A stretch of 64,000 bases of DNA from a virus. Its lineage: Duplodnaviria > Caudoviricetes. Shown here in pieces: positions 27,838 to 64,000 of the stretch (positions are counted from its first letter, which is position 1; each line of letters begins with the position of its first letter). The notes below the pieces were generated by a model, which had not been told where the DNA came from, ran no database searches, and saw nothing but the letters and a program-made list of their open reading frames with translations. Location of the stretch: positions 33,677 through 97,676 of the IMG/VR virus record IMGVR_UViG_2513237266_000002, one strand, 5' to 3'. The position numbers were made by a program, and so were the translations under genes.

Positions 27838-27838
27838 G

Positions 27839-28023
27839 TTATCCACATAGTGGAAATATTAGGGCGATCCACTATCTCCCCATTCTGCGCGGCCTCCGGG
27901 CATTAAATCGCAGTTTTCCCGAAAAAAAGGATATGCCGCATTTTTACCCCCTCTGATATGCCGCACTTGGCACCAGAGAGGACGCGGCCTGCAAGCCAGA
28001 ATTTGCCGCGTGATACGCCGCAC
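27839..28023. repeat. Repeat-rich site (GATAYGCCGCA x3) with a DnaA-box match; candidate recombination/packaging site
   Basis: GATATGCCGCA 27930, TGATATGCCGCACTT 27954, TGATACGCCGCAC 28011, GACGCGGCCTG 27981; TTATCCACA 27839. Confidence 0.65.
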
Positions 28024-28081
28024 CCGGATCGGTAAAATCGGATTTTGAACAAAAAATAATCACATTGACTTAGGCGGAAGT

Positions 28082-42733: not shown

Positions 42734-43801
42734 ATGTCACAGAACTGGATGAGACATTTCGAGCTGCAGCTCGTGGACGAGAACGGGCAGGGTATTGAGC
42801 TCAGCGATTTTAAAGTGACCTTTACGATCGACTGGTTCAACATCAGCAGCGCGTCACGCGTGGGAACGTTCAAAATCTATAATCTGTCAGCTGATACGGT
42901 GAACCGCATCACCGGGCAGGAGTTTTCGAAAGTGCGGCTGATTGCCGGTTACGACGGTATCGCGCCGGAGGTATCGGCCAGTGATGTCGGGACCGTGCGG
43001 GAAGTCGACGCGGCGGACGTGGGACAGAGTGATGGCCGTAACTATGGACTGATTTTCAGCGGTGAAATTCGCTACTCGGTCACCGGTAAAGACAGTCCTA
43101 TTGATTCCTACGTACTGATTCAGGCAGCTGATACGGATCTGGCTTTTGCCACCAGCATAACCTCGCAGACGCTGGCAGCCGGTTACACGGTCGCGGACGT
43201 GAACCGCGCTCTGATGAAAGACTTCGAGGCCAAAGGCGCGACCGAAGGACTGACGCCTGAAATGCCTGCTACCGTATTCCCCCGAGGCCGGGTGCTGTTC
43301 GGCATGACACGACATCTTATGGATAACGTGGCCGGACAATGTGGCGCAACATGGCAATTTGTGGACGGTCAGCGCCAGATGGTGGCGAATAACGAGTATG
43401 TTCACGACGCGATTGTGCTCAACAGCGCAACCGGGCTTATCGGCATGCCGCAGCAGACCATCGGCAACGGCGTAAACGTCCGCGCACTGATTAACCCGAA
43501 CATCCGGGTTAACGGGCTTATTCAACTGAATCAGGCTTCCGTGTACCGCACCGCGCTGTCGAACAACGATATCGCTATGGCTGGTGGGCAGATCACCGAC
43601 CAGAACACGGACGGAAATATCACGCTCAGCGGCACCACGGCGCAGCCTGCCAGCATTGCAACGGATGGCGTTTATATTGTGCGCGGGATTATGTACACTG
43701 GCGATACAAGGGGCCAGGCTTGGTACATGGATATGATGTGCGAAGCGCGTGGCGCGGCTGATCTCCGTTCGGCGTCGTCTTTACAGCGTGAGGTAGGATA
43801 G
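42734..43801 (+). CDS. Baseplate hub protein (helper copy)
   Basis: IYNLS, LIAGY, LIFSG, TGLIGMP, GDTRGQAWY; lies before spike. Confidence 0.8.
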   Translation: MSQNWMRHFELQLVDENGQGIELSDFKVTFTIDWFNISSASRVGTFKIYNLSADTVNRITGQEFSKVRLIAGYDGIAPEVSASDVGTVREVDAADVGQSDGRNYGLIFSGEIRYSVTGKDSPIDSYVLIQAADTDLAFATSITSQTLAAGYTVADVNRALMKDFEAKGATEGLTPEMPATVFPRGRVLFGMTRHLMDNVAGQCGATWQFVDGQRQMVANNEYVHDAIVLNSATGLIGMPQQTIGNGVNVRALINPNIRVNGLIQLNQASVYRTALSNNDIAMAGGQITDQNTDGNITLSGTTAQPASIATDGVYIVRGIMYTGDTRGQAWYMDMMCEARGAADLRSASSLQREVG

Positions 43802-44154
43802 TGAAAAAGTGGATTTTTATCGGACTCTGTTTCCTTCCGGGGTTAGCGTTTGCTGCGAATCCTGGCGGTATCACGCTACAGTGTGGTGGCTACAAATTAG
43901 AGTTGATTCCTGATTCACTGTTCAGGATTAATGGTGAGACAGTTACCTCCCAGAAAATTAAAACGCTCGGCAACGGAAATGGAATGAAGGCAGACATGGG
44001 CCTTATGCCAGCCAAAGACGGTAACAATTACGGTTTCGAGTTTATTCGCCGTCCGGGTACCGAAACACGTTTCCTGAACGTCCAACTGCTGCAGAACAGC
44101 ATGGACGCGCCAAAAGTTATCGGCTCTTTTCCGTGTAAGAAAGTGCCTGGATAA
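43801..44154 (+). CDS. Exported small protein with two Cys (helper copy)
   Basis: Sec signal MKKWIFIGLCFLPGLAFA; coupled to hub. Confidence 0.75.
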   Translation: MKKWIFIGLCFLPGLAFAANPGGITLQCGGYKLELIPDSLFRINGETVTSQKIKTLGNGNGMKADMGLMPAKDGNNYGFEFIRRPGTETRFLNVQLLQNSMDAPKVIGSFPCKKVPG

Positions 44155-46630: not shown

Positions 46631-46701
46631 ATGGCCCTCAATTTGGACACACTCGGCTTATCGGCAACGGTAACCGCTGAGGGGATCAGTGCGCCTGATT
46701 A
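46631..46701 (+). pseudogene. Baseplate J-like gene, 5' fragment (interrupted by satellite)
   Basis: MALNLDTLGLSATVTAEGISAPDY continues in frame at 58577 after excision. Confidence 0.9.
46685..46701 (+). repeat. Satellite attL core
   Basis: ATCAGTGCGCCTGATTA, identical at 58560-58576; ATCA-N7-TGAT dyad. Confidence 0.95.
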
Positions 46702-46871
46702 TTTTAATATCTATGAATCAATACGTTAACGTTCAATAAAGCGCGGTGTGGCTGGGTTTAGTCCCTGCTTATGGTGTTTGAATCCATTCGATTACTTTCG
46801 TCTATCTGGGGTTCAATTCGCCATAAGTGGGACTACGAAAGAAACCACAGCGGAAGCAGTGATAGGAGCTG

Positions 46872-48104
46872 ATGATGCTTGTTAAACCACTCACCAATGC
46901 AGAAGTTAAGAACGCGAAGCCACAGCTTAAAGATTACAGTCTTCATGATGGGTTTGGACTTCTTCTGTACGTTACTAAGTCAGGCGGTAAATCGTGGCGA
47001 TTCCGCTATGCGCACCCCATAACCGGGAAAAGGCAGACATTCACTATTGGCCGATATCCAGAATTTAGTCTCGCAGAAGCGAGGGAGGCGAGAGAAGAAG
47101 CCAGAAGGAAAGTTGCCCGAGGGATAGATCCAAACGAGGTTAAAAAAGAAGAACTCAGCGACAGACGGAAAAAACATGCGCAGCAGTTTTCTGTTATCGC
47201 TGATAACTGGCTGAAAATAAAAATCACGGAGGGCATCCGCAGCAATACAATTCGAGGCTACGAGGGGGCTTTAAAAACGCTGAATAGTGTTCTTGGTGAC
47301 GAGCCGGTACATAAAATGAATGCCGCCTCAACAATTCAGGCAATGAGAGAGTTTGCCGATCGTCCCGCCTCTGTGGAAAAGATGATAGTTGTGCTCAATT
47401 CGGTAATGGATTATGCGGTAAACACCGGAGTCATTGACCATAATTGCCTGCTAAAAATCGGCAAGGCTTTCCCAGCCAAAAGAAGCGTACCAATGCCCGT
47501 GATGGATAAAGGCAGATTGCCTGTGTTCCTTTCTGAATGGCTGGGGCTGAGTATGTGGGAGCCGATAAGGCTGTGTGTCTACTTCCAGCTTTTAACGATG
47601 GTAAGGCCATCTGAGGCTCGCCTGGCTGTTTGGGACGAAATTGATTTAGACAGTGCTGTCTGGAAAATTCCGGCTGAAAGAATGAAAGGGAAAAGGCCAC
47701 ACGCTGTACCGCTGTCCGCGCAAGCAATAGCAGTTTTACGCAATGCTGAAAAATGGCGTCGCGGGGCGTTTATTTTTCCTTCCGGCAAAAAGGGAGATAA
47801 GCCGATTGGAAAATGTACCGGGCAGATCGCTATTCATAAAACATCGCTAAGCGGAGAGGTTGTTACTCACGGGCTTAGGTCGCTTGCATCAACTGTGCTG
47901 AATGAAGAAGGGTTTAACCCTGATGTTATTGAGGCGGCACTTGCTCACAGAAGCAGGAACGCAATCCGCAATATCTACAATCGTACTGATTACTTTGAAC
48001 AGCGGCGTATGCTCATGCAGTGGTGGGGGGATTATGTCGATAGCGCAGAGCGCGGAGAACTGCTTGAGACAAAGGGCGATAAAGGATTAAGGCTGATTGG
48101 TTAG
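46872..48104 (+). CDS. int: Satellite integrase (P4-type)
   Basis: DGFGLLL..GGKSW..IGRYP..SLAEAR arm domain; VRPSE, HGLR, LAH...Y. Confidence 0.95.
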   Translation: MMLVKPLTNAEVKNAKPQLKDYSLHDGFGLLLYVTKSGGKSWRFRYAHPITGKRQTFTIGRYPEFSLAEAREAREEARRKVARGIDPNEVKKEELSDRRKKHAQQFSVIADNWLKIKITEGIRSNTIRGYEGALKTLNSVLGDEPVHKMNAASTIQAMREFADRPASVEKMIVVLNSVMDYAVNTGVIDHNCLLKIGKAFPAKRSVPMPVMDKGRLPVFLSEWLGLSMWEPIRLCVYFQLLTMVRPSEARLAVWDEIDLDSAVWKIPAERMKGKRPHAVPLSAQAIAVLRNAEKWRRGAFIFPSGKKGDKPIGKCTGQIAIHKTSLSGEVVTHGLRSLASTVLNEEGFNPDVIEAALAHRSRNAIRNIYNRTDYFEQRRMLMQWWGDYVDSAERGELLETKGDKGLRLIG

Positions 48105-48225
48105 TCCTCAAAACTCGACGTTTATTGCTGGCTATATGCCAGATTTTTTATTCCATTCAAACGCCGAAATGTATCTTTTTTATTCATATTTGTTATAATT
48201 GATTCATATATATACGGAGGTTTTT

Positions 48226-48438
48226 ATGTCTGAATCGAATAGTGAAATACTACTTAAAGGCGAGGTTAAAGCGCGACTTCGCTACCGTTCTGATTCTGCG
48301 TTCTATGATTTCCTCAAAGATGAGGGAAACGGTTTTCCGATGCCTTTTAAAGTGGGAGGCCGTAACTGCTGGTATCGTGACGAGGTTGAAGCGTGGATCG
48401 GGAAACAAAGTGAAAAGCGCGGGATCTGTACCGCATGA
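48226..48438 (+). CDS. alpA: AlpA-family regulator/excisionase
   Basis: FPMPFKVGGRNCWYRDEVEAW; GGAGG RBS. Confidence 0.85.
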   Translation: MSESNSEILLKGEVKARLRYRSDSAFYDFLKDEGNGFPMPFKVGGRNCWYRDEVEAWIGKQSEKRGICTA

Positions 48439-48577
48439 AAGCGGAGCAAATAGACGGGGCTTGTTACCGAAAGGGGCAAGCCTTTTTTATTGTCTGTTGC
48501 CAGCAACGGTAACTTACACCAGCCAGAGAAAGGCATTTCATCGGGTAGCGGTGGAATGTTTGCAGAAAAATGCACAA

Positions 48578-48682
48578 AGGTATTCATAGTGTTCATGATT
48601 TGAATATAGGTATTAAAAATCAGATAGATAGGCTATGAACACCTTTATCTAAGGTATTCATAGGGTATTCATAGTGTTCATA
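48578..48682. repeat. Iteron cluster 1 (GTRTTCAT / ATGAAYAC)
   Basis: About 6 copies, e.g. GGTATTCATAGGGTATTCATAGTGTTCAT. Confidence 0.75.
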
Positions 48683-48876
48683 AAGCGTGGATCTTTCCCC
48701 GGAAAAATTCGCCGGATGTTATAAAGCGCTTGCGTCATCATGGCGGGCATGGTTATGATTATTTCGCACCTTATAAAACGGGTGCCGGGTTTGACAGCCT
48801 GAACGTTCAAGCGGGTAGCCGCTAATTTCCGTATAGCGGTATTTTTACGCCCGTATTTCACCTATACCCCGATTTA

Positions 48877-48952
48877 TGGCGGGGCGTGGTGGGGAGGCTT
48901 ACGCCTGCTGGTTTCTTGAACGCCAGTCTGTCAACCCTGCTACGTCTCGCCA
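48877..48952 (+). ncRNA. C4/CI-like antisense immunity RNA
   Basis: TGGCGGGGCGTGG...CTACGTCTCGCCA closing stem; internal CTTGAAC and CTGTCAA complementary to GTTCAAG/TTGACAG upstream (48791-48811) and downstream (48960-48997). Confidence 0.8.
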
Positions 48953-49008
48953 CCCATGTTTGACAGCATCTGGCGAGACTCCTGAAAAATGTTCAAGGAG
49001 CCGCTAAA

Positions 49009-49254
49009 ATGGCTAAACCAACCTGCCCCAAATATACCTGGCTGTTTCTGGCCACACCGAAAAAACACGACTGCACACCAATCGTATTGCGCACAATGGC
49101 TGATACCGAAGAAGAAGCCCGCGATACCTTCCCATGCTGGAACCTGACTTTTGCCGCAAAAATCCGCACTGAAAGCAGCCTGCGTGATTCTGGCTGTGGA
49201 ACTTATGGCCTGAACCTCCTGACTCCGGAAATGCTGGAGGTGCACAATGTTTAA
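49009..49254 (+). CDS. Icd-like cell-division inhibitor
   Basis: [21 protein letters not shown]; follows C4-like RNA. Confidence 0.8.
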
Positions 49255-50125
49255 CCTCCAGACATTGACAGCCAAAGCCCGAGAATTGCGCGGCAACGTG
49301 GTTAAAGCGGTTAGCACTAAGGGCAGTCGCACAATGACGCCAGTTTATGACCGTGACGAACAGCGCAAGCTACGCGAACGCATACAGCAGACGCAACCGG
49401 ATTGGTTGTTGCTCTGGTGGGACATTGCGACCGTAACCGGCTGGCGTACCAGTGACGTTTGCAACCTGCGCTATTCCTGCATCAATTGGGAAACGGGGCA
49501 GGCGACAATTATCGTTGCCAAACAGACCAAAGCTGCTGAAGCGCGGGCAACCCGCAAAGGCATTGAAATCGTGCGCCAGCAGCGCAAGGACGCGGCGAGG
49601 CTTGCCGCTGACCATATCGCCTACATGAAGTGGGACAGCATCAACTGTGACGCGCTGGCAGCGGATATGACCGACGAAGAACAGGCGATAGTATTCGGGC
49701 TGGTGGCTAAAGCTGACGTTAAGCACGACACCAAACAGTTACCGCCTGGCATCATCAAGCGGCTGCGCGAACGTCAGGATCGGAACTTGGTAGAGGACGA
49801 CCTGATATTTTCCCGCTCTCAAATCGAAAGTAACCGTTGTCAACGTCTGGAAGGTAGCGTGACCCGCCAGACCATATGGCGCAAACTCCATGATGTGATG
49901 GCGTGGTTTACCCGCGTTATCAACGCCAAACTGCGTCTGAGCGCTTATTCAAGCCGTAAGATTGCAGCCTTTAACCTCATGTCAGCAGGCGGCGAACAAG
50001 GTTTGTTGGTGGCCTCTGAAATGCTGGGGCATAGCAACCCGGCAATAACACGCACATATCTGCAGTTAGGAAGTAAAGCGGCCGCGATCCAGTCTCGTCT
50101 GGCTATGGAGGTGTGCAATGCGTAA
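49247..50125 (+). CDS. Second satellite tyrosine-recombinase-family protein
   Basis: TGWRTSD, YSSRK, LGHSN..TRTYL. Confidence 0.8.
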
Positions 50126-50300
50126 AACCTTCCAGATTGATGGCTACGCAGTTAACAAACGCGGTCTGACCGTTGGTATTCACTACACCATGACCAGCAC
50201 CGGCCCTGAAACGGCGAAAGATACGGCGCAGCTACTTGCTCAGAAAGGCGGGTATAAACACGTCCGTATTAACTTTGTCCGGGAGGCGAAAAATGCGTGA
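50118..50300 (+). CDS. Small hypothetical protein
   Basis: GGAGG RBS, coupled. Confidence 0.65.
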   Translation: MRKTFQIDGYAVNKRGLTVGIHYTMTSTGPETAKDTAQLLAQKGGYKHVRINFVREAKNA

Positions 50301-50487
50301 GCCAATCAGCTTAGACCAGGCTGAATATAAATCAGCACTGGCCGCTTCACTCTTTGAAACCATTCTGGAAAAAGCCTGTGCTGAATGTTCGGAAACCCTG
50401 CTGAACCATATCTCACTGGCATGTGACCTTAATCAGGAAATTCACCGGGCATTAATCGCTGAGCTGCGCATGGGAGAGACAAAATGA
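50293..50487 (+). CDS. Small hypothetical protein
   Basis: MREPISLDQ start, GGAGG RBS. Confidence 0.65.
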   Translation: MREPISLDQAEYKSALAASLFETILEKACAECSETLLNHISLACDLNQEIHRALIAELRMGETK

Positions 50488-50690
50488 GACAGGTTCCTTT
50501 TGAAGTCCTGATGCACGCCGAAAATGCGCTGGCATACAGCAAACAGGCTCTGGCTATTCTGGAAGTCTGGATGGACTCACTAGGCGAAGGTGACGAACAC
50601 GAATCTAACTGCGTAGCCGCCATTCACAGCCTGGTACATGAATCAAAAGAATACCTGCAAAAAGCCACGGGGGTACAAAGTGCAAAATGA
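50484..50690 (+). CDS. Small hypothetical protein
   Basis: ATGA overlap with upstream gene. Confidence 0.65.
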   Translation: MRQVPFEVLMHAENALAYSKQALAILEVWMDSLGEGDEHESNCVAAIHSLVHESKEYLQKATGVQSAK

Positions 50691-53022
50691 CTTTGTAAGC
50701 GATGTGCGCAGCAGAGCAAATGGCTATTGGCCGTCGATACTTGAACGCCTGGCGATTCCGACTAACCGCAGTGAGGGGCCGTGTCCTGCGTGTGGCGGTA
50801 ATACCCGTTACCGTTTCGACAATAAAGATAACCGGGGAACGTATTTCTGTTCGCACTGTGGCGCGGGTACCGGGCTGGATCTGGTGATGAAGGTCAACCA
50901 GTGCGGCCCGAGAGAAGCGGCTGAGCTGGTGGCCGAAGCTATGACGCTGCCTATGCCGGAACCGAAGCAAGCCAGAGATAAGCCTCAAACGGATATCGCC
51001 GGGAAAGTTGCGGCGCTGGCCGCGAAAGCCTCTCCGGGGCAGTCTGCTTACCTTACATCAAAGGGGCTTCAATGCCCCTTCCCGATGCTGTCCGACGGAT
51101 CGCTGCTGCTGGTGCTGAAAAACGGTGCTGGTGCGGCGACTGGCGCACAGGTGATTAAACCTGATGGCAGTAAGCGGCTGGTGGCCGGAACGGTGAAGAA
51201 AGGCTCTTTTTGCGTAGTTAATTCCGGCGCAACGTCGGAAACGGTGATTATCGCCGAAGGGCTGGCAACGGCGCTTTCGGTTCAGCAGTTCCGCCCTGAT
51301 GCGACAATTATCGCAGCTATTGACGCCGGGAACCTGCTGCCCGTTGCTCAGGTGATGCGCAAAAAATACCCGAACGCGCGGATCATCATTGCTGCAGATA
51401 ATGACCAGAGCGCCGAAAGTGACAGAAGCGGAGAAGTGAAAGTTAACACAGGTAAGGAGTGTGCAGAGAAAGCCGCTAAAGCCGTTGCTGGCTGGGTTTC
51501 TTTGCCCCCTGTGGACTACAAGGCGGACTGGAACGACTACCACCGACAAAACGGACTGGAAGCCGCTATAGCAGCATTTAACGATTCGATGTATCAGCCG
51601 GAGGGGGAAACTGTGGGCGCAAAACTTAAAGTAGTCGATGGCGGTAAAAAGCGCGGGCGCGGAGAAATCAACCTGATCCAGATGGCAGATAATGAAAAAG
51701 CGCTGATGCTGGCAGACCGTTACGAGGGAATAGCCATTCACGCAGAGAGCGAGGCTGTATATCTGTACCGTGAAGGCGTATGGGTAAAAGCAGCGCCATT
51801 AGAATTAAGCCGCGAAATGGTGGCTATCTACAACGAAAATCAGACTAATTTCAGCAAACGCTCAGTAAATAACGTAATTGAAGCATTGAAGATTGTCATT
51901 CCTGTTATGGGCCAGCCTCGCCGGAGCCTGATCCCGTTCAAAAATGGTGTGTACGACATGGAAACCGGGACTTTCTCGCAGCATTCATTAGATAACTGGC
52001 TTACTAACGATAACGGTGTGATCTATACGCCGCCGGAGCCTGGCGAAAATCTTCACGACCATGCGCCAAACTTCCATAAATGGCTAAGTTACACAGCAGG
52101 AAGAGACGCACTTAAAATGAAGCGGATCGCCGCTGGGCTTTTTATGGTGCTGGCGAACCGCTACGACTGGCAGCTTTTTCTTGAGATAACCGGGGAGGGA
52201 GGTAGCGGCAAAAGCGTTTTCACTCACATTGCTACTATGCTGGCTGGCGAACACAACACGGCCAGCGGAAATATGGCCGCACTGGATAGCGCCAGAGGTC
52301 GGGCGCAGTTCGTAGGCAAAAGTATGATAACCCTACCAGACCAGCCAAAATATTCAGGCGAGGGAACGGGTATAAAAGCGATTACGGGCGGCGATGCCGT
52401 AGAGATTGACCCGAAGCATGAACACCAGTACACCGCCGTTCTGAGGGCTGTTGTAGTCGCTACAAACAACACGCCGATGATTTTCACCGAACGGGCCGGA
52501 GGCGTTGCCCGCCGTAGGGTTATTTTTCAGTTTAATAACCGGGTTCGAGAGGAAGACAAAGACCCCGATTTGTCGGAAAAGATATCCGCAGAAATCCCGG
52601 TTATTGTCCGCCGGCTCCTGGCTAACTTTTCTGATCCAGAGAAAGCAAGGGCGCTTTTGTTGGAACAGAGGAACAGTGAAGAAGCGCTGGAGGTTAAACA
52701 GAAAACAGACCCGCTTTATGCTTTCTGCGCATACCTTGAAAAGCTGTCAGAGTGTACGGGAATGCTGGTAGGGAACCGCAATCCGCCTCTCTACCCACGC
52801 GTGTATCTCTATCATGCGTATCTGGCCTTTCTGGAGGCTAACGGATTCGATAAGCCTTTAACACTCAATAAATTTGCTGAGGGCATGGAAAGCGCAATGC
52901 GCGAATTTAACCACGAATACCGGAAAGAGAGAAAGACGCGAGGAGTTGTAACCAACGTGGAACTCTCAGGAAGTGCTGAAGACTGGCTTCCACAGCCTTA
53001 TCCCAATCCCGCCAAGAAGTAA
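50680..53022 (+). CDS. P4 alpha-like primase-helicase
   Basis: CPACGG..CSHCG Zn finger, EGLATA/AADND TOPRIM, GEGGSGKS SF3 helicase, C-terminal winged helix. Confidence 0.93.
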   Translation: MQNDFVSDVRSRANGYWPSILERLAIPTNRSEGPCPACGGNTRYRFDNKDNRGTYFCSHCGAGTGLDLVMKVNQCGPREAAELVAEAMTLPMPEPKQARDKPQTDIAGKVAALAAKASPGQSAYLTSKGLQCPFPMLSDGSLLLVLKNGAGAATGAQVIKPDGSKRLVAGTVKKGSFCVVNSGATSETVIIAEGLATALSVQQFRPDATIIAAIDAGNLLPVAQVMRKKYPNARIIIAADNDQSAESDRSGEVKVNTGKECAEKAAKAVAGWVSLPPVDYKADWNDYHRQNGLEAAIAAFNDSMYQPEGETVGAKLKVVDGGKKRGRGEINLIQMADNEKALMLADRYEGIAIHAESEAVYLYREGVWVKAAPLELSREMVAIYNENQTNFSKRSVNNVIEALKIVIPVMGQPRRSLIPFKNGVYDMETGTFSQHSLDNWLTNDNGVIYTPPEPGENLHDHAPNFHKWLSYTAGRDALKMKRIAAGLFMVLANRYDWQLFLEITGEGGSGKSVFTHIATMLAGEHNTASGNMAALDSARGRAQFVGKSMITLPDQPKYSGEGTGIKAITGGDAVEIDPKHEHQYTAVLRAVVVATNNTPMIFTERAGGVARRRVIFQFNNRVREEDKDPDLSEKISAEIPVIVRRLLANFSDPEKARALLLEQRNSEEALEVKQKTDPLYAFCAYLEKLSECTGMLVGNRNPPLYPRVYLYHAYLAFLEANGFDKPLTLNKFAEGMESAMREFNHEYRKERKTRGVVTNVELSGSAEDWLPQPYPNPAKK

Positions 53023-53028
53023 GCAAAT

Positions 53029-53058
53029 AAAAAGCCCGCGAAAGGAGGCGCGGGCTTT
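53029..53058. terminator. Terminator after primase
   Basis: AAAGCCCGCG...CGCGGGCTTT. Confidence 0.7.
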
Positions 53059-53239
53059 GCTTAGTATCACATTGTGCAATCGGAGAGGGTATGCCTGCCC
53101 TCACAAACTTAGGATAGCAGATATTTAACACTGAATACCACTTTTATAAATTGATTGTTGTGTTTATTACCTGTTTTTATGGTAATGAAGTATAATATCT
53201 GTACCGACAATCCCGTCGAGGTAACAGGACAATCTGACC

Positions 53240-53794
53240 ATGCCAAATCTCAAGCAGTTCAATGCTCAGCCCGTCGCTAACGGTGTCGTAATCACGGCGA
53301 ACTACGACGACGGCAGCACTATTTCCTTTCCTACTGATAAACAATCATCCGATTTTATGACATCTATTGTGCAGGCGCTGGCCTCAGCTAATGACCGTAT
53401 CATTGCTGCTGAAAATCGCGCGGCGGCGGCAAATCGCACGGCTGATCGCATGTACAAGCGGACCGTAGATTCATCCGAAGATGGACTGCCAACAAAAATA
53501 GACCCTCAGTTTATGCGACTGGTTCGTGCTGTATGCCCGCGTTATGACGAGGCCAGCCAAGGAGATGATCCACGGTTGGTCGCCCTTGATGTGCTGCGTT
53601 ATGCGCCAGTAACTGCGTTCAGTGCGGTATGCAATGAATCACTGGCTGATTTGCAACCTAATCGGGCGATAGAAATTCTTGAGCAGGTGGGTGATTACAT
53701 GAAAGCCAACGGCATTGATCCGAAGCCATATACGTCAGCCGATACGATTAGGGCTATCGGCGATTCTGCTAAAAAATTCTGGAGTAAAAAATAA
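53240..53794 (+). CDS. Satellite protein ending in scaffold-like C-terminal motif
   Basis: C-terminus IRAIGDSAKKFWSKK resembles helper [16 protein letters not shown]. Confidence 0.7.
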   Translation: MPNLKQFNAQPVANGVVITANYDDGSTISFPTDKQSSDFMTSIVQALASANDRIIAAENRAAAANRTADRMYKRTVDSSEDGLPTKIDPQFMRLVRAVCPRYDEASQGDDPRLVALDVLRYAPVTAFSAVCNESLADLQPNRAIEILEQVGDYMKANGIDPKPYTSADTIRAIGDSAKKFWSKK

Positions 53795-53795
53795 T

Positions 53796-53981
53796 ATGTC
53801 ACGATTCATTACCCGATCAGAACGAGAAGCAATGCGAGCGCGTAGAACGACTGATAGTGAACGAGCAAACATTCAGAATATCAATCAGGCCAATAAAGAT
53901 TTTTGGGAACAGAAAAAAACGGAAGAAAAAGATAGGTTGGCCGTGATTAACAGACACCTTTTTCCCTACGGTAAATTTTAA
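53796..53981 (+). CDS. 61-aa satellite protein with scaffold-like motif
   Basis: TTDS...IQNINQANKDFWEQKK; GGAG RBS; starts 1 bp after upstream stop. Confidence 0.65.
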   Translation: MSRFITRSEREAMRARRTTDSERANIQNINQANKDFWEQKKTEEKDRLAVINRHLFPYGKF

Positions 53982-54025
53982 CCCCACAGCCCGGAGATTA
54001 GTCCGGGTTTGCTTTTTTAAGGAGC

Positions 54026-55099
54026 ATGAATATGTCACAAAACTGGATGCGTCACTTTGAATTACAACTGGTGGACGACAACGGGCAAGGTATTGAACTC
54101 AGCGATTTCAAAGTGACCTTCACGATCGACTGGTTCAACATCAGCAGCGCGTCGCGGGTGGGTACGTTCAAAATCTACAACCTGTCGGCTGATACGGTGA
54201 ACCGAATCACCGGGCAGGAGTTTTCGAAAGTGCGTCTGATTGCGGGCTATGACGGCATCGCGCCGGAAGTGTCGGCCAGCAGCGTCGGAACGGCGCGAGA
54301 AGTCGATGCGGCGGACGTGGGCCAGAGTGATGGCCGGAACTACGGACTGATTTTCAGCGGAGAAATTCGCTACTCGGTCACAGGTAAAGACAGCCCCATT
54401 GATTCCTACGTCCTGATTCAGGCAGCCGATACGGATCTGGCTTTTGCTACCAGCATAACCTCGCAGACGCTGGCAGCCGGCTACACGACAGAAGACATGT
54501 TCAATCTTTTAATGAAAGACTTTGAGGCCAAAGGCGCAACTGTGGGTCGCACTCCAGTATTCCCCCCTACAGTGTTCCCTCGGGGCCGCGCACTGTTTGG
54601 CATGACCAGACACCTGATGGACAACGTGGCCGCACAATGCGGAGCGACCTGGCAGTTCGTGGACGGACAGCTAAATATGCTGCCAGAAGGTGAGTATATG
54701 CACGACGCGATTGTGCTCAACAGCGCCACCGGACTGATCGGGATGCCGCAGCAGACCATCGGCAACGGCGTGAACGTTCGCGCACTGATTAACCCGAATA
54801 TTCGAATTAACGGGCTCATTCAGCTGGATCAACGTTCCGTGTATCGCACCGCGTTGTCAAACAACGATATCGCGATGGCTGGCGGGCAGATCACCGACCA
54901 GAATACGGACGGCAATATCACGCTCAGCGGCACCACAGCGCAGCCTGCCAGCATCGCAACAGATGGCGTTTATGTTGTGAAAGGCATTATGTACACTGGC
55001 GACACAAGGGGCCAGGCGTGGTACATGGATATGATGTGCGAAGCGCGTGGCGCGGCGGATCTTAATTCAAAATCTTATTTCGATAAAACGAGTGGCTAA
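54026..55099 (+). CDS. Baseplate hub protein (satellite allele)
   Basis: Near-identical to 42734-43801 except a few patches and the C-terminus. Confidence 0.9.
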   Translation: MNMSQNWMRHFELQLVDDNGQGIELSDFKVTFTIDWFNISSASRVGTFKIYNLSADTVNRITGQEFSKVRLIAGYDGIAPEVSASSVGTAREVDAADVGQSDGRNYGLIFSGEIRYSVTGKDSPIDSYVLIQAADTDLAFATSITSQTLAAGYTTEDMFNLLMKDFEAKGATVGRTPVFPPTVFPRGRALFGMTRHLMDNVAAQCGATWQFVDGQLNMLPEGEYMHDAIVLNSATGLIGMPQQTIGNGVNVRALINPNIRINGLIQLDQRSVYRTALSNNDIAMAGGQITDQNTDGNITLSGTTAQPASIATDGVYVVKGIMYTGDTRGQAWYMDMMCEARGAADLNSKSYFDKTSG

Positions 55100-55446
55100 T
55101 GATAACTGCATTAAAAACATTCTGTGCATTTGCAATATTCTTATCTTTATCAGCTAATGCTGCTTTCTTATGTGGTAGCTGGAAACTAACGGGTAATGAT
55201 GATGGCTGGGTTAGGGTAAATGGTGAGAAGGTAACTTCCCAAAAAGTTAAAGAATTAGGCGCGAAAGGTGATGGTGCTAACACTGTTTGGAATATGGGCC
55301 TGATGCCAGCGCGTGACGGGAACAATTACGGCTTTGAGTTCGTGAAGCGCAAAGGAAAAGCTTTCCTGAACGTCCAACTGCTGCAGAACAGCATGGACGC
55401 GCCGAGAATCATCGGATCTTTCCCGTGTAAAAAAGTTCCTGATTAA
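55099..55446 (+). CDS. Exported small protein (satellite allele)
   Basis: Signal peptide; C-terminal half nearly identical to 43801-44154. Confidence 0.85.
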   Translation: MITALKTFCAFAIFLSLSANAAFLCGSWKLTGNDDGWVRVNGEKVTSQKVKELGAKGDGANTVWNMGLMPARDGNNYGFEFVKRKGKAFLNVQLLQNSMDAPRIIGSFPCKKVPD

Positions 55447-55512
55447 AGCAGAGACTTAGCGGCATATTAGTAACACCTTATGTTAATAAAATGTTTCTAT
55501 TGAGGCGACAGG

Positions 55513-55619
55513 CATGAACACCTATGTACACTTATGAAGGGTTGTGAATACTGGTGTTCATGCTTTATCTTTATGAATAATATGGTTAATATCGCGAATA
55601 TGAATACCATGAACACCTT
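55513..55619. repeat. Iteron cluster 2 (ATGAAYAC)
   Basis: ATGAACACC, TGAATACTGGTGTTCAT, ATGAATACCATGAACACC; same motif as cluster 1. Confidence 0.7.
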
Positions 55620-55811
55620 GAGAGCAAGTTCTCTAAAACGCGCCCTAAATGCAACACTTACAGTATAAAAACCATTTTTATAGTTCAAAAAAGAATATGC
55701 ATTAACAATTTATTATCATTTGGTTTGGCGGCATTTATAAGCTTTTACGCACAGAAAATAACCATCTTGTTAGCCGTATTAAATGTCAGACGTGAGGAAC
55801 GGTAACTTAAA

Positions 55812-56396
55812 ATGAAAAATAGCGTTACTAATGCAAACTCCTGCTCTGATACGCAGGAAATTGAAAGTTTACCTGCATACAGACAGGCGCTGGCCGATGA
55901 CGCTGTAAGTAATAAGGTGTCTGCTGTAGAACGTATCCGGGCAAGGTTGGCGCTTCTGGAGAGCTATATTCCTGATTCGCCTGTGCCACAAGACGAGGTA
56001 GCCGAATTTCGTGGCCGCATCACCGGATTACTCGGTGAACTGGAGGTGGGCGGTAAACGCGGCACTGTACTGATTCATGCACATCGAAAATTACGCGATT
56101 TAGAGGATCGGATTTACATTCCTGTACGCCGGATGGCCGCTGAACAGTTTGACCAACTGCGCCGGGAAAAACCGGACATGACGGGCGATGTATTACTGAA
56201 AACTCTGCTGGGCGATGAAATTGGCGAATATCAGACGAGAAACCCGGAGGCGTCAAAAATAGCCACTCTGGCCGCGCTTATGAGGTCATCACCCCGTGTG
56301 GATATTCTCATCAACATGATCCGCCAGCGAAATGATGAGCATACGGTAGCAGTGTTTAGCTGGTGTCCTCTGGAATTACCTTTGCAGGGTGTGTAG
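55812..56396 (+). CDS. Hypothetical satellite protein
   Basis: 194-aa ORF upstream of third recombinase. Confidence 0.7.
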   Translation: MKNSVTNANSCSDTQEIESLPAYRQALADDAVSNKVSAVERIRARLALLESYIPDSPVPQDEVAEFRGRITGLLGELEVGGKRGTVLIHAHRKLRDLEDRIYIPVRRMAAEQFDQLRREKPDMTGDVLLKTLLGDEIGEYQTRNPEASKIATLAALMRSSPRVDILINMIRQRNDEHTVAVFSWCPLELPLQGV

Positions 56397-56404
56397 GGGG
56401 AAAC

Positions 56405-57430
56405 ATGGCATCTATCCGTGAGATTGGCTCGGGAAAGCGCCTGCGTTATGTCGTTAACTGGCTGGATAAAGAAAACCGCACCGGGCGACGCAATACCTTT
56501 CACAGCATCGACGATGCGGCGGCGCTGCTGTATCAACTGGAAGTGGCAGCCCTTGACTGGCGAACGGCAGACAATGCGGAGGCGGTAAAACGCTGGACGC
56601 TGCAGAAACTGTCTTGGTTCTGGCTGGGATATCAGCGCGACAGGCTGAACCGGAACAGGATCAGGGCAACCAGTTACGACCGCTACCGCTATTGCCTGCT
56701 AAACCTTCCGTCTGACCTGCTGAATAAAAACCTGAATAAAATCACTTCACGCCAACTTAGCGAGCGGCTTAACCGACAGTCGCTTGTGTACATCGGCGCG
56801 GCTTTTGCTTATCTCATGCGTTCCGGGATGATTGCTCATAATCCGGTTCGCCAGAGCCGATCACCGGCAGACAGGCCGTGGCAAATCCCGGATGAAGATA
56901 CCGTGTTAGCCATGCTGGATCGCGCAGAGCGGCGCGAAAGGATTGCTATCTGGCTGGGCGCGGCTTGCGGCCTGCGTATCAGCGAAGTGCTGGCGTTAAC
57001 CTATCGGGATGTGAGCGCTGACGAAATACAGGTTCGCTGCCATCTGACTTCACGCGGGATTATCCGGGGCAGAAAGCGCGGCAGGGGCCGTTCCGTCGAT
57101 ATGCCGGTTGGCCTGTATGAGTGCCTCGATAAAACGCTGCTGGGAACGGATACACCGCTGATTGCCGGGAGCAACGGACAGAGGCTGAGCCTGAACTACA
57201 GCACATCCGGCGTGATGAAACGCCTGCTCTCTGAATTCGGGATAGAGCGCTTTCATGACCTGAGGCATTTTGCGGTGTCCAGCCTGGTAAAAAACGGCGT
57301 TGATATTCTGGACGTGTCGGACATGGTGGGCCACTCCCGGCCGTCGGTGACGTTGAATATTTACGGGCATCTTTTCCGCGAAAAACCGTCACTCAAGAAC
57401 GCTCTGAGAGGAGGGGTAAGGAGAATATAG
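56405..57430 (+). CDS. Third satellite tyrosine recombinase, homologue of helper 26833-27837
   Basis: Shared MASI, GRR..F..IDDAA, WT..KL..F.LGYQ, RERIA.WLG, RFH.LRHFAVS.L...GVDIL, YGHLF. Confidence 0.9.
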   Translation: MASIREIGSGKRLRYVVNWLDKENRTGRRNTFHSIDDAAALLYQLEVAALDWRTADNAEAVKRWTLQKLSWFWLGYQRDRLNRNRIRATSYDRYRYCLLNLPSDLLNKNLNKITSRQLSERLNRQSLVYIGAAFAYLMRSGMIAHNPVRQSRSPADRPWQIPDEDTVLAMLDRAERRERIAIWLGAACGLRISEVLALTYRDVSADEIQVRCHLTSRGIIRGRKRGRGRSVDMPVGLYECLDKTLLGTDTPLIAGSNGQRLSLNYSTSGVMKRLLSEFGIERFHDLRHFAVSSLVKNGVDILDVSDMVGHSRPSVTLNIYGHLFREKPSLKNALRGGVRRI

Positions 57431-57496
57431 TAAACTCCTTACTTTCCCGGTGTGATGCGGGTTCATCGACTGAAAGCGACGATCTAGCCATTTTTG

Positions 57497-57637
57497 GATA
57501 ATACCGCACTTTTTCACGCTTTCCGGACGGGTGAGCAACAAAATGCGGAGAAATGAGGAATGACGCGGCCTGTAGCCCGACAAAGTGCGGCATATCACAT
57601 GAGCGCAGGCCGCATTCTACCGTTATCGATACGCCGC
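57497..57637. repeat. Satellite counterpart of helper repeat site
   Basis: AAGTGCGGCATATCA (57583) is the exact reverse complement of helper 27954-27968; GACGCGGCCTG 57562; GATACGCCGC 57628. Confidence 0.75.
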
Positions 57638-57700
57638 GGACTTTTTGAGGGTTCGTGAGCACGTCCCGTTTTTTGCCGATGGTGGACAGAGTGAGGAAAA

Positions 57701-58225
57701 ATGAACGTTTTAGCAGCCGCTGAAAATGGCTTCCGGTTTAAGGGGATCTGGTGGACGGAGGAGACCTTTACTGACGTATTGCGCACGGTACTGAACCTGC
57801 ACCGTGCTATGAGTAATCACCGGGTGGCTTTTCACTTTGGAGTTTCTGAAAAAGCCGTCAGGAAATTGAGAGCACGCAGCGATACCGCCAATGGGGTGAT
57901 ACTGCGCCTGATGGAAGAAGCGAAACTCAGCAGTAGCAGGCCAGCACAGTATCGCGAACGCAACTGGTACAACAATTACCCGGAAGACATCGAGGCCAGA
58001 AAAATACTGATAGCCGCAGAGGAGGAAAGGGAAAGGCAGCGGGTAGTTCGACATGAGCAGCGAAAGCAGAGAACGCGCCGGGTTACTGATGGTGCTCTAC
58101 GTCTTGAGCGGATTAGAGCGCAGCGGCGTGAGGCGGTACAATGCTGTAAACGGTCAGGATTAACTCAGGTGCTGGCAGCAGAAAGCCTGTCATGTTCGCT
58201 AAGTACTGTCCGGCGGTACTGGTGA
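57701..58225 (+). CDS. Double-HTH protein; N-terminal HTH resembles helper TerS
   Basis: SNHRVAFHFGVSEKAVRKLR vs SNRMVAQRLGVDETTIRRWR; C-terminal TQVLAAESLSCSLSTVRRYW. Confidence 0.7.
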   Translation: MNVLAAAENGFRFKGIWWTEETFTDVLRTVLNLHRAMSNHRVAFHFGVSEKAVRKLRARSDTANGVILRLMEEAKLSSSRPAQYRERNWYNNYPEDIEARKILIAAEEERERQRVVRHEQRKQRTRRVTDGALRLERIRAQRREAVQCCKRSGLTQVLAAESLSCSLSTVRRYW

Positions 58226-58277
58226 ATGTTGAGCGACCGTAGCCGTTAAGTTTCACTTCTGGTAATGAGTAACTTAC

Positions 58278-58466
58278 ATGCTGAAATCTGATGTGATTGA
58301 GTCTGCAATAGCAGAGATGTTAACAAAGCAAGGGCGAGATTTAGACGCTACTGACATGCTGGAGATACGCCGTAGGGTAGCTGGATCGCTCGCCGCAAAG
58401 GAAAGGCACCGCCAGCGCATGACAGCCCCGGAATATCGCTGGAACAAGCCTGCACCCCGCAGATAG
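58278..58466 (+). CDS. Small basic hypothetical protein
   Basis: Last ORF before attR. Confidence 0.6.
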   Translation: MLKSDVIESAIAEMLTKQGRDLDATDMLEIRRRVAGSLAAKERHRQRMTAPEYRWNKPAPRR

Positions 58467-58559
58467 TAATTTGCACACCTAAGAGCAGTTAACGGACTAG
58501 ATTCCCACTACAAATAAAATAAAAGCCATATATATCAATAGCATTATCATTGTTATTGA

Positions 58560-58576
58560 ATCAGTGCGCCTGATTA
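58560..58576 (+). repeat. Satellite attR core
   Basis: ATCAGTGCGCCTGATTA. Confidence 0.95.
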
Positions 58577-59705
58577 CCAGACGATACTCGATACCCTGAC
58601 GAGCTATTTCCAGCAGATTTATGGTAGTGACGCTTATCTGGAGCCAGACAGCAAAGACGGTCAGATGGTGGCACTGGTGGCGCTGGCTATCCATGATGCC
58701 AATAACACGGCTATTTCCGTCTATAACTGCTTTTCTCCTGCCACAGGGTATGGCGCCGCGTTGACCAGCAACGTGAAAATTAACGGCATCGCGCGCAAAG
58801 GGGCGACGAACTCTACTGTGGATCTGGTGCTGGCTGGCACTGCAGGGACAACTATCACGAACGGTACCGTAAAAGACACCAATAACGTGATCTGGCGTCT
58901 TCCTGCCTCGGTGGTGATTGGTGTCGACGGTACGGTGACGGTAACGGCCACCTGTTCCAACAGCGGGGCAGTTGCCGCGCTGGCCGGGACTATCACCACT
59001 ATCAACACCCCGACCCGAGGCTGGACATCTGTGATCAATCCAGCGGCGGCCACCGTCGGAGCACCGGCAGAAACCGACGCAGAGCTGCGCATCCGGCAGG
59101 GGCAGAGTGTCGCGCTACCCTCTGTAACACCGTTTGAAGGTGTCGACGGTGCGATCGCTAACGTTGCTGGTGTGACACGTCACAAGCTCTACGAGAATGA
59201 CACTGGCGCTACCGACAGTAATGGGCTTCCGCCACATTCTATCTCTGCCATCGTTGACGGTGGCGACGTAACGGACATTGCTCAGACAATCCGGGGCAAC
59301 AAGGGGCAGGGAACGGCGACCTATGGGACGACCTCTGTCACGGTACCTGACACTTACGGCAATCCGCACGTGATCAGTTTTTCGCGCTCGACTGATGTCC
59401 CGATTTTCGGGCATATCACTCTGAAAGCCTTTACGGGCTACACGTCGCAAATTGGCGTACAGATTCAGCAGGCCGTCGCGGATTACATCAACGGGCTGAC
59501 GATCGGTGATTCAGTTCTGCTGAGTCGCATATACTCCCCGGCTAACCTGGGCGTGGTCAGTGGTGGCAGTGCTCGTTATTACGACATTCAGGAACTGCTA
59601 ATTGGCAAATCAGCCGGAACTGTAGCGGCGGCAAATATCAACATTGCATACAACGAGTCAGCATCCTGTAAGCCTGAAAATATTGTTCTAACGGTGACGT
59701 CATGA
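58560..59705 (+). pseudogene. Baseplate J-like gene, 3' part (399 aa when rejoined)
   Basis: ISAPDYQTILD..DSKDGQMV..; ETDAELRIR, PPHSI..VDGG baseplate-J motifs. Confidence 0.9.
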
Positions 59706-61684: not shown

Positions 61685-62116
61685 ATGAACTTTTACTATA
61701 CGGCCGAATTTAATTCATTTATCAGTGAAAAATATAAAACTGATGGTACATATACGGATAAGTCATGGCCCGCTGATGCTGTGCTCTGCACTGCTGAAGA
61801 AGTGAATATATTTCGGGGAACAACGCCGCCAGCAGGTATGAAACTTGGTTCTGTTGCGGGGAGGCCTGCATGGGTTGACGTTCCTCCATTAACGCGGGCT
61901 GAGATGATCGCTATTGCTGAAAATGAGCGGCAGCGATTAATTGTTAATGCTGACGCTATTATGCTCGACTGGCGCACAGAACTGATGCTCGGTGAAATCA
62001 GCGACGCCAACAGAGCGAAGTTGTCGGCGTGGTTGGCCTATAAAAATAAAGTGAAATCCATCCCAGCGGAAGAGGCTATTACCGCTGAATTTAGTTGGCC
62101 AGACCAACCAGCATAG
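61685..62116 (+). CDS. Tail fibre assembly protein
   Basis: GRPAWVDVPP...W..Y..WPDQP. Confidence 0.88.
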   Translation: MNFYYTAEFNSFISEKYKTDGTYTDKSWPADAVLCTAEEVNIFRGTTPPAGMKLGSVAGRPAWVDVPPLTRAEMIAIAENERQRLIVNADAIMLDWRTELMLGEISDANRAKLSAWLAYKNKVKSIPAEEAITAEFSWPDQPA

Positions 62117-62123
62117 GAATGTT

Positions 62124-62459
62124 TTAGCTACCGGGAGGTGTAGGCCATACGGGTTTTGCTGTATCAACGCGCATCAAATTCAACCTATAGTCCTGCCAGA
62201 TTATCAAGTCGGCGGCTTCTTCAGTCGTCGCTTTTCCCCTGTCAACGGCGTACTGTCGCCAGGCTATTTCACTATCAGCCTCTGAACGGAGTCGTGCTTT
62301 TTTAGCTTCAGCGGCAGCAATTTGCTCCTCAACTGTTGGAGCTAAAAGGGCCATCGCTTCCGGTTCCGATATTTTAATTAGTCCTTCCAGAATAAATTCC
62401 TCATCACAGTCATCTTCATATGCAAACACTGCATTACTTTTATTTTTGAAATATTGCAT
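62124..62459 (-). CDS. Alternative tail fibre assembly protein
   Basis: WQDYR..LMRVD...WPTPP. Confidence 0.85.
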   Translation of the reverse strand: MQYFKNKSNAVFAYEDDCDEEFILEGLIKISEPEAMALLAPTVEEQIAAAEAKKARLRSEADSEIAWRQYAVDRGKATTEEAADLIIWQDYRLNLMRVDTAKPVWPTPPGS

Positions 62460-63075
62460 TACCGTAACTCCGCCCATGAAGAAAATGCGCCCGAAAATAT
62501 GTATTGCGCACCAGGTGGCACAATGGCAAATAATGTTGAATCTGAATCTGCCCCTCGCGCAAACGCCGTTAATACACCTCCAACATAGAGTCCCCTGTCT
62601 CCGTCACCCGTCTCAGGAATAGATACGCAGATTGGTCTGGTTGTGCTGTTGGTGTAAGTCACCCCGGCAGTTCGTGAAGCGGTAACATTCACCCAAGTCT
62701 GTCCCGTTCCCAGTGCCTTAGATGCATCTAACTTACTGTCAAAAAGATATTCAAGCCCTGTCCCGTTCAGAGTTGTATCAGACGGGAGAGCTACTGAACC
62801 TGAAAATGTTTGCTTCTTAGTGAATGTATTTTGAACATCTGTTTTCGCGGCGTTGGTTAAGCCGAGATATGAAAGTAATCCTGCAACATCCTTTCCTGAT
62901 AACGCTGTTAATGTGTCGTCTTTGTCTTGTTTATAATCAAACCATGCCTGTAAACCAATCCCTTTGTAAGCTGTATTGGCTGGAAGAGATACGCCTCCCG
63001 TGAATTTCTGGTCGCCAGTAAATGTGTTGTTTCCGCTTGTTTTTGCTAAATCTTCCAAACCAACGTTTTTAATAA
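62459..63075 (-). CDS. Silent alternative tail fibre C-terminus
   Basis: Fuses in frame (YL/GLED) after inversion; LGTGQTW..YTNSTTRPI..WAELR tip. Confidence 0.85.
63050..63075 (-). repeat. Invertase crossover site, right
   Basis: Reverse complement TTATTAAAAACG-TT-GGTTTGGAAGAT, inverted relative to 60800. Confidence 0.8.
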
Positions 63076-63129
63076 TGATCATTTATCGCTCAGGTGGCAT
63101 GCTTACGGCCTTTTGCAGGAAGGAAACTC

Positions 63130-63684
63130 ATGCTTATTGGGTATGTGAGGGTGTCAACAAATGACCAGAACACGGCACTACAACGAAACGCGCTCAAGAG
63201 TGCAGGATGTGAGCTGATTTTCGAAGACAAGATCAGCGGTAAGGTGTCAGACAGACCAGGATTAAAAAAGGTGCTCCGGACGCTATCTGAAGGCGATACG
63301 CTGGTGGTGTGGAAACTGGATCGGCTCGGGCGAAGCATGCGACATCTTGTTGGGTTAGTGGAGGAACTGCGGGAGAAAGATGTTAACTTCCGGAGCCTGA
63401 CGGATAGCATCGATACGAGTACGCCTATGGGAAGATTCTTCTTTCATGTGATGGGTGCACTGGCTGAAATGGAAAGGGAGCTTATTGTCGAACGCACCCG
63501 GGCAGGTTTAGAAGCTGCGCGCGCGGAAGGTCGCATTGGTGGCCGTAGACCAAAACTAACGGATGAGCAGTGGGCGCAGGCAGGGAGATTAATTGCTGCA
63601 GGGGAAACGCGTCAGCGCGTGGCAATAATTTACGATGTAGGAGTGTCAACACTATACCGAAAATTCCCTGTAGGCAGGGCTTAG
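63130..63684 (+). CDS. Serine DNA invertase (Gin/Pin/Hin family)
   Basis: GYVRVSTNDQ, KLDRLGRS, GRIGGRRP, C-terminal HTH. Confidence 0.95.
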   Translation: MLIGYVRVSTNDQNTALQRNALKSAGCELIFEDKISGKVSDRPGLKKVLRTLSEGDTLVVWKLDRLGRSMRHLVGLVEELREKDVNFRSLTDSIDTSTPMGRFFFHVMGALAEMERELIVERTRAGLEAARAEGRIGGRRPKLTDEQWAQAGRLIAAGETRQRVAIIYDVGVSTLYRKFPVGRA

Positions 63685-63733
63685 ACATGATGCAGGCCGC
63701 CGGTAAAGATTAATGCTGGCAGCCAGCACAACT

Positions 63734-64000
63734 TTAGAGCCCAACCTGGCGAACTGTCGGGAACTCAGACACCAGCCACATATCGGCCTCTTCAAACATA
63801 TCCTCCAGCATGCGGTTCAGCTTTTCCCGATCGCTTTTGCTGGCATCGCTATTCAAGGCGTTCGCCTGCATCGGTTTCACCTTAACTTCGGCATCAGGGA
63901 AAATCTGGTGCACTCGCTTCGTCAACTCAGCCAGGATGATCTCTCTGGCCCCCGTCAACCCTTCAACATTACGCTTGTCATAAACCAGTTCAACGAACAT
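63734..64000 (-). CDS. dinI: DinI-family protein
   Basis: MFVELVYDKRN...MFEEADMW. Confidence 0.88.
   Translation of the reverse strand: MFVELVYDKRNVEGLTGAREIILAELTKRVHQIFPDAEVKVKPMQANALNSDASKSDREKLNRMLEDMFEEADMWLVSEFPTVRQVGL

Follow-up and report, generated by a model that had tools for sequence, protein, structure and literature searches.

A probable P4/PICI-type satellite in the baseplate-J gene of a SEN34-like prophage

We analyzed a 64,000-nucleotide (nt) stretch of the IMG/VR virus record IMGVR_UViG_2513237266_000002 (positions 33,677 to 97,676 of that record; hereafter the window), in which a prophage gene for the baseplate protein J is interrupted by foreign DNA. The segment 46702-58576, consisting of one copy of a 17-bp attachment core and 11,858 bp of unique DNA, is very likely a satellite of the P4/phage-inducible chromosomal island (PICI) type that integrates in the J gene of SEN34-like (Brunovirus-type) contractile-tailed prophages, and completion of the helper tails would await its excision.

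The split J gene and its attachment cores

Both ends of the insert carry the exact 17-bp direct repeat ATCAGTGCGCCTGATTA, at 46685-46701 (left core) and at 58560-58576 (right core, attR), with a start-to-start spacing of 11,875 bp. When the 15.3-kb region was shuffled, a repeated 17-mer arose by chance in 1 of 200 shuffles. The repeat corresponds to nt 55-71 (codons 19-24) of a plus-strand gene whose ATG at 46631 lies directly 3' of the stop codon of a gene encoding a sheath-initiator-like protein of 117 amino acids (aa). At attL, the 5' fragment of J (46631-46729) retains 23 full native codons and two bases of the 24th, after which the frame continues for 8 foreign codons up to a stop at 46727-46729; its N terminus matches that of intact J genes. 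At attR, a TGA abuts the core on the upstream side, and the J frame is then open on the plus strand from 58577 to 59705 (codons 25-399, first internal in-frame ATG at 58665), this 3' part being recognized as Pfam Baseplate_J. The block of identity is exactly 17 bp long, the adjoining bases mismatching at both sides. Joining 46631-46701 to 58577-59705 gave a 1200-nt open reading frame (ORF) of 399 aa in frame. This is in agreement with the initial annotation, which had proposed from the repeat that the gene is split at codons 19-24 and that excision regenerates such an ORF.

The core harbors 5-bp inverted repeats (ATCAG/CTGAT) around TGCGC, and the Klebsiella-type attL core again contains an inverted repeat (ATAAG...CTTAT). 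Core-type integrase sites are expected to hold inverted repeats of this kind. Because attP brings no replacement coding sequence, J is broken for as long as the satellite resides in it, and a comparison of the satellite proteins with those of the helper revealed no J copy carried by the satellite. The split gene is flanked upstream by genes for the sheath initiator, the spike and the hub and downstream by genes for a DUF2612 protein and a tail fibre.

The identification of the split gene as baseplate J, likewise made in the initial annotation, was borne out by a comparison with uninterrupted loci. Using tblastn, we found that the joined 399-aa protein aligns unbroken and colinearly, at 67-98% identity, to J in 12 loci (SEN34 and 11 genomes). 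These alignments span residues 1-399, except in four loci (1-397 or 1-398) and in one where the end of the locus limits them at 354. SEN34, an isolated Brunovirus phage, has a 1200-nt J gene with the identical 17-mer at codon 19. The identical 17-mer was present in SEN34 and one genome, and most of the other intact J loci differed by 1-2 bases. Additionally, many of the 401 Enterobacteriaceae species genomes match only up to query position 142/143, which corresponds to window base 46701, where the repeat ends. A pattern scan identified 36 further IMG/VR contigs with an uninterrupted, attB-like J site (variant ATAAGTGCGCCTGATTA), and a pattern scan aimed at the Klebsiella-type attR returned only uninterrupted J genes. 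At megablast sensitivity, no complete Escherichia coli genome matched the integrase region, though SEN34-like prophages with an intact J occur there.

The integration site lies in the most conserved part of J, the N-terminal MALNLDTLGLSATVTAEGISAPDYQTIL stretch. In baseplates of solved structure, the homologues of J are wedge proteins, and with one of these the alignment sets in at residue 11. As is established for contractile baseplates (T4 gp6/gp7 and homologous proteins), the core bundle of the wedge is made up of the N-terminal part of the wedge protein.

An occupied J site was found in seven or more further assemblies or contigs (G001, L004/L048, L036, L037, L038, L047 and L050). In the chromosome CP074149.1 (G001), a related prophage contains a 12.9-kb island with the same core and a 99%-identical integrase. 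The remaining ones are an IMG/VR contig (L004/L048), a Logan contig with an 80%-identical integrase (L036), two loci with integrase P0135 of a Klebsiella/Raoultella-named cluster (L037 and L038), a 36-kb IMG/VR contig (L047) and a 103-kb human-gut contig (L050). Overall, the J-site integrases form two clusters of 80 and 19 member sequences, which bear the names Enterobacter, Klebsiella and Raoultella; one member is labelled Enterobacter chengduensis. Since the integrases of L037 and L038 are identical and the neighbouring helper genes are different, separate integration events can be argued. A scan of species genomes with a single integrase protein, a method that detects close relatives only, gave only a distant Sphingomonas match.

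The predicted attP was recovered from a metagenome. Contig ERZ773209 NODE-2605 (L049) contains the right end of the satellite, the 17-bp core and the left end, in this order: in reverse complement, its positions 1-1614 correspond to window 56962-58576 at 98.3% identity and its positions 1598-5443 to 46685-50530 at 96.9%. Assemblers usually work with k-mers longer than this 17-bp repeat, so the junction was probably covered by reads. A free circle, a replicative concatemer and a tandem pair are all conceivable sources of the contig, and each requires site-specific recombination at the core. Because L049 holds the exact predicted junction, the satellite recombines precisely in nature, as judged from this sequence, and the junction predicted from the initially proposed excision at the repeat is present in a natural sample.

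Gene content and inner-baseplate module of the satellite

The satellite genes are co-oriented with the helper late operon on the plus strand and are ordered into an integration zone (int, AlpA), a regulatory zone (C4/isrK), a replication zone (primase) and a late zone. As expected for a Gram-negative PICI (about 10-15 kb), the element harbors int, alpA and a primase gene within the 11,875 bp between the cores, and a complete virion gene set is absent. The initial annotation had called the insert a satellite; the integrase, the AlpA homologue, the C4/isrK RNAs and the D5-type primase, all co-oriented with J, uphold this view.

The integrase (46872-48104; 410 aa) has an arm-type DNA-binding domain of the P4/CP4-57 type (Pfam PF13356 and PF00589; NCBIfam PRK09692). 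Beside it, at the AlpA position, lies the gene for a small helix-turn-helix (HTH) protein of 70 aa (48226-48438), a putative excisionase/regulator that is 49% identical (E 1e-23) to the product of the int-adjacent gene of a lambdoid-embedded relative. The closest relatives also have a 70-aa gene at the alpA position, and in two further relatives its product has 80-88 aa. The P4-type immunity RNA region (48766-48957) comprises an isrK/seqA-like RNA at 48766-48846 (Rfam isrK, 42.3 bits, below the gathering score of 50) and a C4/CI RNA at 48872-48957 (Rfam C4, 70 bits; gathering score 45). Upstream of this region, two exact 18-bp repeats, ATGAACACTATGAATACC, located on the minus strand within 48579-48681, are candidate regulator or promoter sites. 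A related, rearranged copy is present at 55600-55617, upstream of a 194-aa gene (3 matches versus 0.01 expected), and these copies may be common regulator sites of two satellite promoters.

The segment 49009-50125 encodes an 81-aa repressor-like protein (phrog_1743) and a 292-aa protein with a tyrosine-recombinase fold (49247-50125; PF00589), for which the relatives examined have a homologue of 291-295 aa at the same position. The 292-aa protein is the product of a fixed backbone gene of this satellite lineage, at a position where a Bro-N gene was called in those lambdoid-embedded relatives that were examined; the island itself has no detected Bro-N domain. On visual inspection, the H-x-x-R motif of the 292-aa protein reads Y-S-S-R. 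Small ORFs lie between this gene and the replication module, a D5-type primase-helicase of 794 aa (50638-53022; Zn-ribbon, Toprim, D5_N, DUF5906 and Pox_D5). Its Pfam primase domains score above threshold, and the C-terminal domain of the P4-family primase reaches 101 bits, slightly below the cut-off of 108.7 bits. Searches of Pfam, PHROG and NCBIfam detected no capsid, terminase, portal or lysis gene in the island, and none of its ORFs matched the sid, psu, delta or epsilon families in these databases. PADLOC gave no defence match for the eight cargo and late-zone proteins submitted.

A conserved satellite protein of 184 aa (53240-53794), without a family match in Pfam, PHROG or NCBIfam, follows the primase. 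Its C terminus (the protein has 187 aa in other satellites) resembles that of the helper scaffold (Pa193_gp24) and co-varies with it in the window and in L007, L008, L009, L037 and L038. The pairs are AKKFW with AKELW in the window and TTGDA...NASFW with TTGDA...NADFW in the E. coli composites. This likeness suggests scaffold mimicry for capsid redirection.

Three satellite genes have homologues in the helper. Two of them, encoding the hub (357 aa) and the next protein, which carries a signal peptide (115 aa), are located at 54026-55446 and are copies of helper 42734-44154. The hub is 90% identical to the helper hub in aa and 79% in nt, with a ratio of nonsynonymous to synonymous substitution rates (dN/dS) of 0.10 and a dS of 0.69, and the signal-peptide proteins are 59% identical in aa. 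With this dS, a recent duplication from the resident helper was rejected as the origin of the hub copy. The third gene belongs to the segment 55812-58466, which encodes a 194-aa protein of unknown function, a 355-aa tyrosine recombinase, a 174-aa HTH protein and a 62-aa ORF. The 355-aa recombinase is 44% identical to a second helper recombinase (26824-27837), encoded between the lysis genes and the gene for a small terminase subunit (TerS)-like protein; it was rejected as a relative of the helper integrase (22% identity). Three GATAYGCCGC repeats come after the gene for this second tyrosine recombinase (337 aa) within helper 26824-28081, and homologues at the same place occur in Yersinia phage YP3 and Sodalis phage phiSG1.

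The region after the satellite recombinase, with intergenic GATAYGCCGC motifs at 57587 and 57628, and the helper region upstream of terS have this motif, a 15-mer and an 11-mer in common. The window contains 6 GATAYGCCGC sites versus 0.33 expected, 5 of which fall within these two intergenic regions. The shared motifs, the scaffold-like C terminus and the satellite's own hub genes suggest, at the sequence level, that the satellite is adapted to this helper.

Baseplate genes were also present in other J-site satellites. Those of G001 and L037 encode a hub, a protein of ~114 aa and a 220-aa spike. The Klebsiella-type satellite of L038 harbors five consecutive genes (18038-21226), for a Dit-like protein, a plug, a hub, a 113-aa protein and a spike; the Dit-like protein, plug, hub and spike are 51-71% identical to its own helper's copies. 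Indeed, the hubs of these other satellites are only 51-61% identical to those of their own helpers, and comparison of the inner-baseplate genes from satellite to satellite gave dN/dS values of 0.05-0.10 at a dS near 1. Most of the window satellite is 97-100% identical to that of G001, whereas the inner-baseplate module is only 50-76% identical, with an indel of ~790 nt. Because the module diverges between otherwise nearly identical satellites, the window satellite holds a swapped, helper-like allele without a spike. By the same sequence comparisons, the inner-baseplate module is a maintained, exchangeable part of the satellite lineage rather than debris.

A further-reaching idea is that the J-site satellites are a distinct class that makes part of the tail. 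Satellite-specified tips would be mounted on helper wedges, sheath and tube and would allow delivery into helper lysogens, and the split of J would delay wedge assembly until the hub genes have been amplified. The only attB of the satellite being located within a helper prophage that is already resident, its DNA could reach, by means of a different tail tip, lysogens that exclude the helper's own tails. We consider this idea tentative and rather unlikely.

Proposed coupling of satellite and helper, and competing explanations

No plus-strand terminator was predicted between the 5' part of J and int (46631-46872), so helper late transcription can enter int, as has been proposed for the satellite 11capE (PMC10111431). 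In the mechanism that we propose, upon induction, late transcription of the helper would run from the upstream baseplate genes into the co-oriented int. The integrase, probably together with the AlpA homologue, would excise the satellite, which would restore J and remove 11.9 kb from a composite about 30% longer than the helper genome. The released circle would use the satellite's primase for its replication and helper proteins for its packaging. Completion of tails, and hence the release of infectious helper, would await excision of the satellite. We infer the block in tail assembly, the coupling of the two life cycles and packaging in small capsids from the conserved role of J as a gp6-like wedge protein and from the published 11capE model. 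The satellite has about 30% of the size of the helper, and related phages have lengths of 36,990-40,740 bp. The helper size of more than 39.5 kb given in the initial annotation stands as an approximation, the record ending at position 64000 and the window being without the helper attR.

Several observations weigh against the satellite reading or parts of it. The 70-aa HTH protein matches Pfam Phage_AlpA with an E value of 0.0057, which fails the cut-off, and a strong terminator-like hairpin is located at 48128-48142, directly after int, so that a separate promoter may be required for alpA. Homology searches of the satellite revealed neither a small terminase nor a capsid-size gene; the 174-aa HTH protein was considered as a small terminase and rejected, as neither BLASTP nor phmmer revealed similarity to the TerS-like protein of the helper. 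The doubled TGTATTGC motif, reported at about -81 and +132 of the attP centre as specific for helper-embedded PICIs (HE-PICIs) (PMC10111431), had no match at one mismatch or fewer in the reconstructed attP; three lambdoid-embedded relatives had none in their left arms either when scanned for exact matches, so the power of this test is uncertain. The coverage of L049 is about 2.6x, and this contig could come from a tandem integrated pair instead of a free circle. Only 1 of the 401 Enterobacteriaceae species genomes searched has an occupied J site, and the right end of the helper lies beyond the record.

The low occupancy of J sites and the lack of any terS, capsid-redirecting or cos/pac function assigned by homology would also fit an integrative island that has its landing site in the prophage J gene and mainly restrains the prophage, to its own benefit or that of the host, blocking tails without being mobilised in helper particles. 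The truncated appearance of many HE-PICI helpers (PMC10111431) points in the same direction. However, GATAYGCCGC and the 15-mer, which recur in the helper region upstream of terS with the sites clustered as described above, speak against such an island, as does the 184-aa protein, whose C terminus co-varies with those of helper scaffolds. The purifying selection on the inner-baseplate genes (dN/dS of 0.05-0.10), a size of about 30% of the helper and the negative PADLOC result argue in the same sense, and we regard this explanation as improbable.

Even less probable is an old integration into a prophage that is now cryptic, with both partners inactive. The helper attR, which is not in the record, leaves room for such a relic. 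However, all satellite ORFs are full length compared with their relatives, the two 17-bp cores have remained identical, and the attP junction exists in a metagenome. Furthermore, the window and G001 satellites, mostly 97-100% identical to each other, reside in helpers whose flanks are about 95% identical where aligned and have undergone a swap of the hub module, and the same integrase protein is found in helpers with different neighbouring genes (L037 and L038).

Finally, that the insertion is neutral for the helper, a truncated J from ATG 58665 or a satellite product being sufficient, is hardly credible: the 346-aa ORF does retain most of Pfam Baseplate_J (residues 32-289), and read-through into the 3' part of J is possible with no plus-strand terminator predicted in the last 4.5 kb of the satellite, but the 53 missing residues include the most conserved stretch, nearly invariant among J genes of 67-98% identity, the satellite is devoid of a J copy, and the composite exceeds the helper genome length by about 30%. 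Because the N terminus of the wedge protein builds the wedge core bundle, as established for contractile baseplates, and because no canonical Shine-Dalgarno sequence or otherwise clear ribosome-binding site precedes 58665, the 346-aa product is unlikely to suffice for tails.

Relation to known satellites and surroundings of the element

Satellites embedded in their helpers have been described before, as the initial annotation had correctly stated, in a survey of HE-PICIs by Tommasini, Mageeney & Williams, 2023 (PMC10111431). The strategy of the window satellite is the known HE-PICI strategy. The gene order of int, AlpA, a regulatory zone with C4/isrK, primase and late zone is the one described for Gram-negative PICIs and HE-PICIs (integration, regulatory, replication, late; PMC10111431). 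The window satellite further resembles HE-PICIs in that its late zone contains counterparts of helper late genes and a secondary recombinase whose relative is encoded by the helper, and in that integrase sub-clades track the site used. However, the survey lists 14 sites, all lambda cognates (A, B, C, E, V, T, L, lambda-J and others), whereas the target here is the baseplate wedge gene of a contractile-tailed phage. Moreover, the window satellite harbors the 292-aa recombinase-fold gene where the lambdoid-embedded relatives examined have a Bro-N gene, and its late zone holds an inner-baseplate module instead of capsid genes.

The accessible text and supplements of PMC10111431 contain none of the words "baseplate," "Major_capside" and "cement," and the junction sequences of the window were not found in its accessible att files, a weak negative as these files are line-wrapped. 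A literature search for satellites in baseplate genes gave nothing specific. The suggestion in the initial annotation that the cargo is the new part was broadly right, but the target gene, the helper type and the integrase sub-lineage were, like the inner-baseplate late zone, not found in the literature searched.

Several features link the window satellite to P4, the satellite of P2: the integrase is of the arm type and from the same broad family, the C4/CI-type immunity RNA comes with an isrK/seqA-like partner, the primase-helicase is of the D5/alpha type, the length of about 11.9 kb amounts to about a third of the helper, and the helper has a contractile tail. Unlike P4, the window satellite is integrated in a helper gene and not in a tRNA gene and carries baseplate genes, and sid, psu, delta and epsilon were not detected. 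The capsid-forming PICIs (cfPICIs; Alqurainy et al. 2023, as cited in PMC10111431) also encode part of the virion and take the rest from the helper; in the account given there, they make capsids and steal tails, whereas the window satellite has genes for the tail tip and baseplate hub and no capsid genes. Regulated gene integrity elements or phage regulatory switches such as skin of Bacillus subtilis, which are discussed in PMC10111431, split a gene that is restored by precise, timed excision. Here, the split gene belongs to the helper phage, and regulation would serve the satellite and not the cell.

In a tree computed without the 11capE, fis and hpt reference integrases, the J-site integrases were monophyletic (support 85/100), with an Enterobacter-named and a Klebsiella-named sub-clade. 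Every integrase relative with a context examined (47-63% identity) sits in the late region of a prophage. The closest, P0003 (63%), is found at the 5' end of the cement/decoration gene of E. coli prophages, with one chromosomal off-target copy; P0005 (55%) in the major capsid gene; P0012 (54%) downstream of a Terminase_2 gene; P0014 (53%) in the gap following a Mu_F gene; P0044 (49%) and P0036 (48%) in terminase A; and P0048 (47%) in a lambdoid tail-gene region. The relatives in lambdoid terminase-A and tail genes, 47-49% identical to the window integrase, have Bro-N neighbours. The cement-gene-site type of satellite was also seen outside a prophage: in L010 (9600-10000), its neighbour is a chromosomal LysR gene, which resembles the off-target integration described for HE-PICIs.

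With the window satellite, the helpers known to embed satellites are no longer lambdoid siphoviruses alone but include contractile-tailed phages, and the targets include a baseplate gene without which tail assembly should come to a complete halt. This integrase group is suggested to have a late-gene tropism wider than the 14 published sites, including baseplate J, major capsid and cement genes (phages with E217/Pa193-type head modules). Satellites with their own hub and spike genes under purifying selection raise the questions of chimeric tails and of how a satellite gets into cells already holding its helper. For annotation, split J genes of this kind are to be read as occupied att sites and not as pseudogenes.

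In the remainder of the window, a serine invertase gene (63094-63684; Resolvase and HTH_7) adjoins opposed tail-fibre/assembly ORFs (61685-63082), as in host-range switches of the Gin/Cin type; one weak inverted repeat pair only was seen. The record ends at the start codon of a minus-strand ORF (63713-64000), DinI-like by eye. Upstream of the helper, the region 1-12295 contains genes that resemble the tail end of another prophage, including a 1061-aa ORF (3410-6595), and a 401-aa ORF on the minus strand (11090-12295) that encodes a possible integrase. It is possible that the record comprises several prophages in a row.

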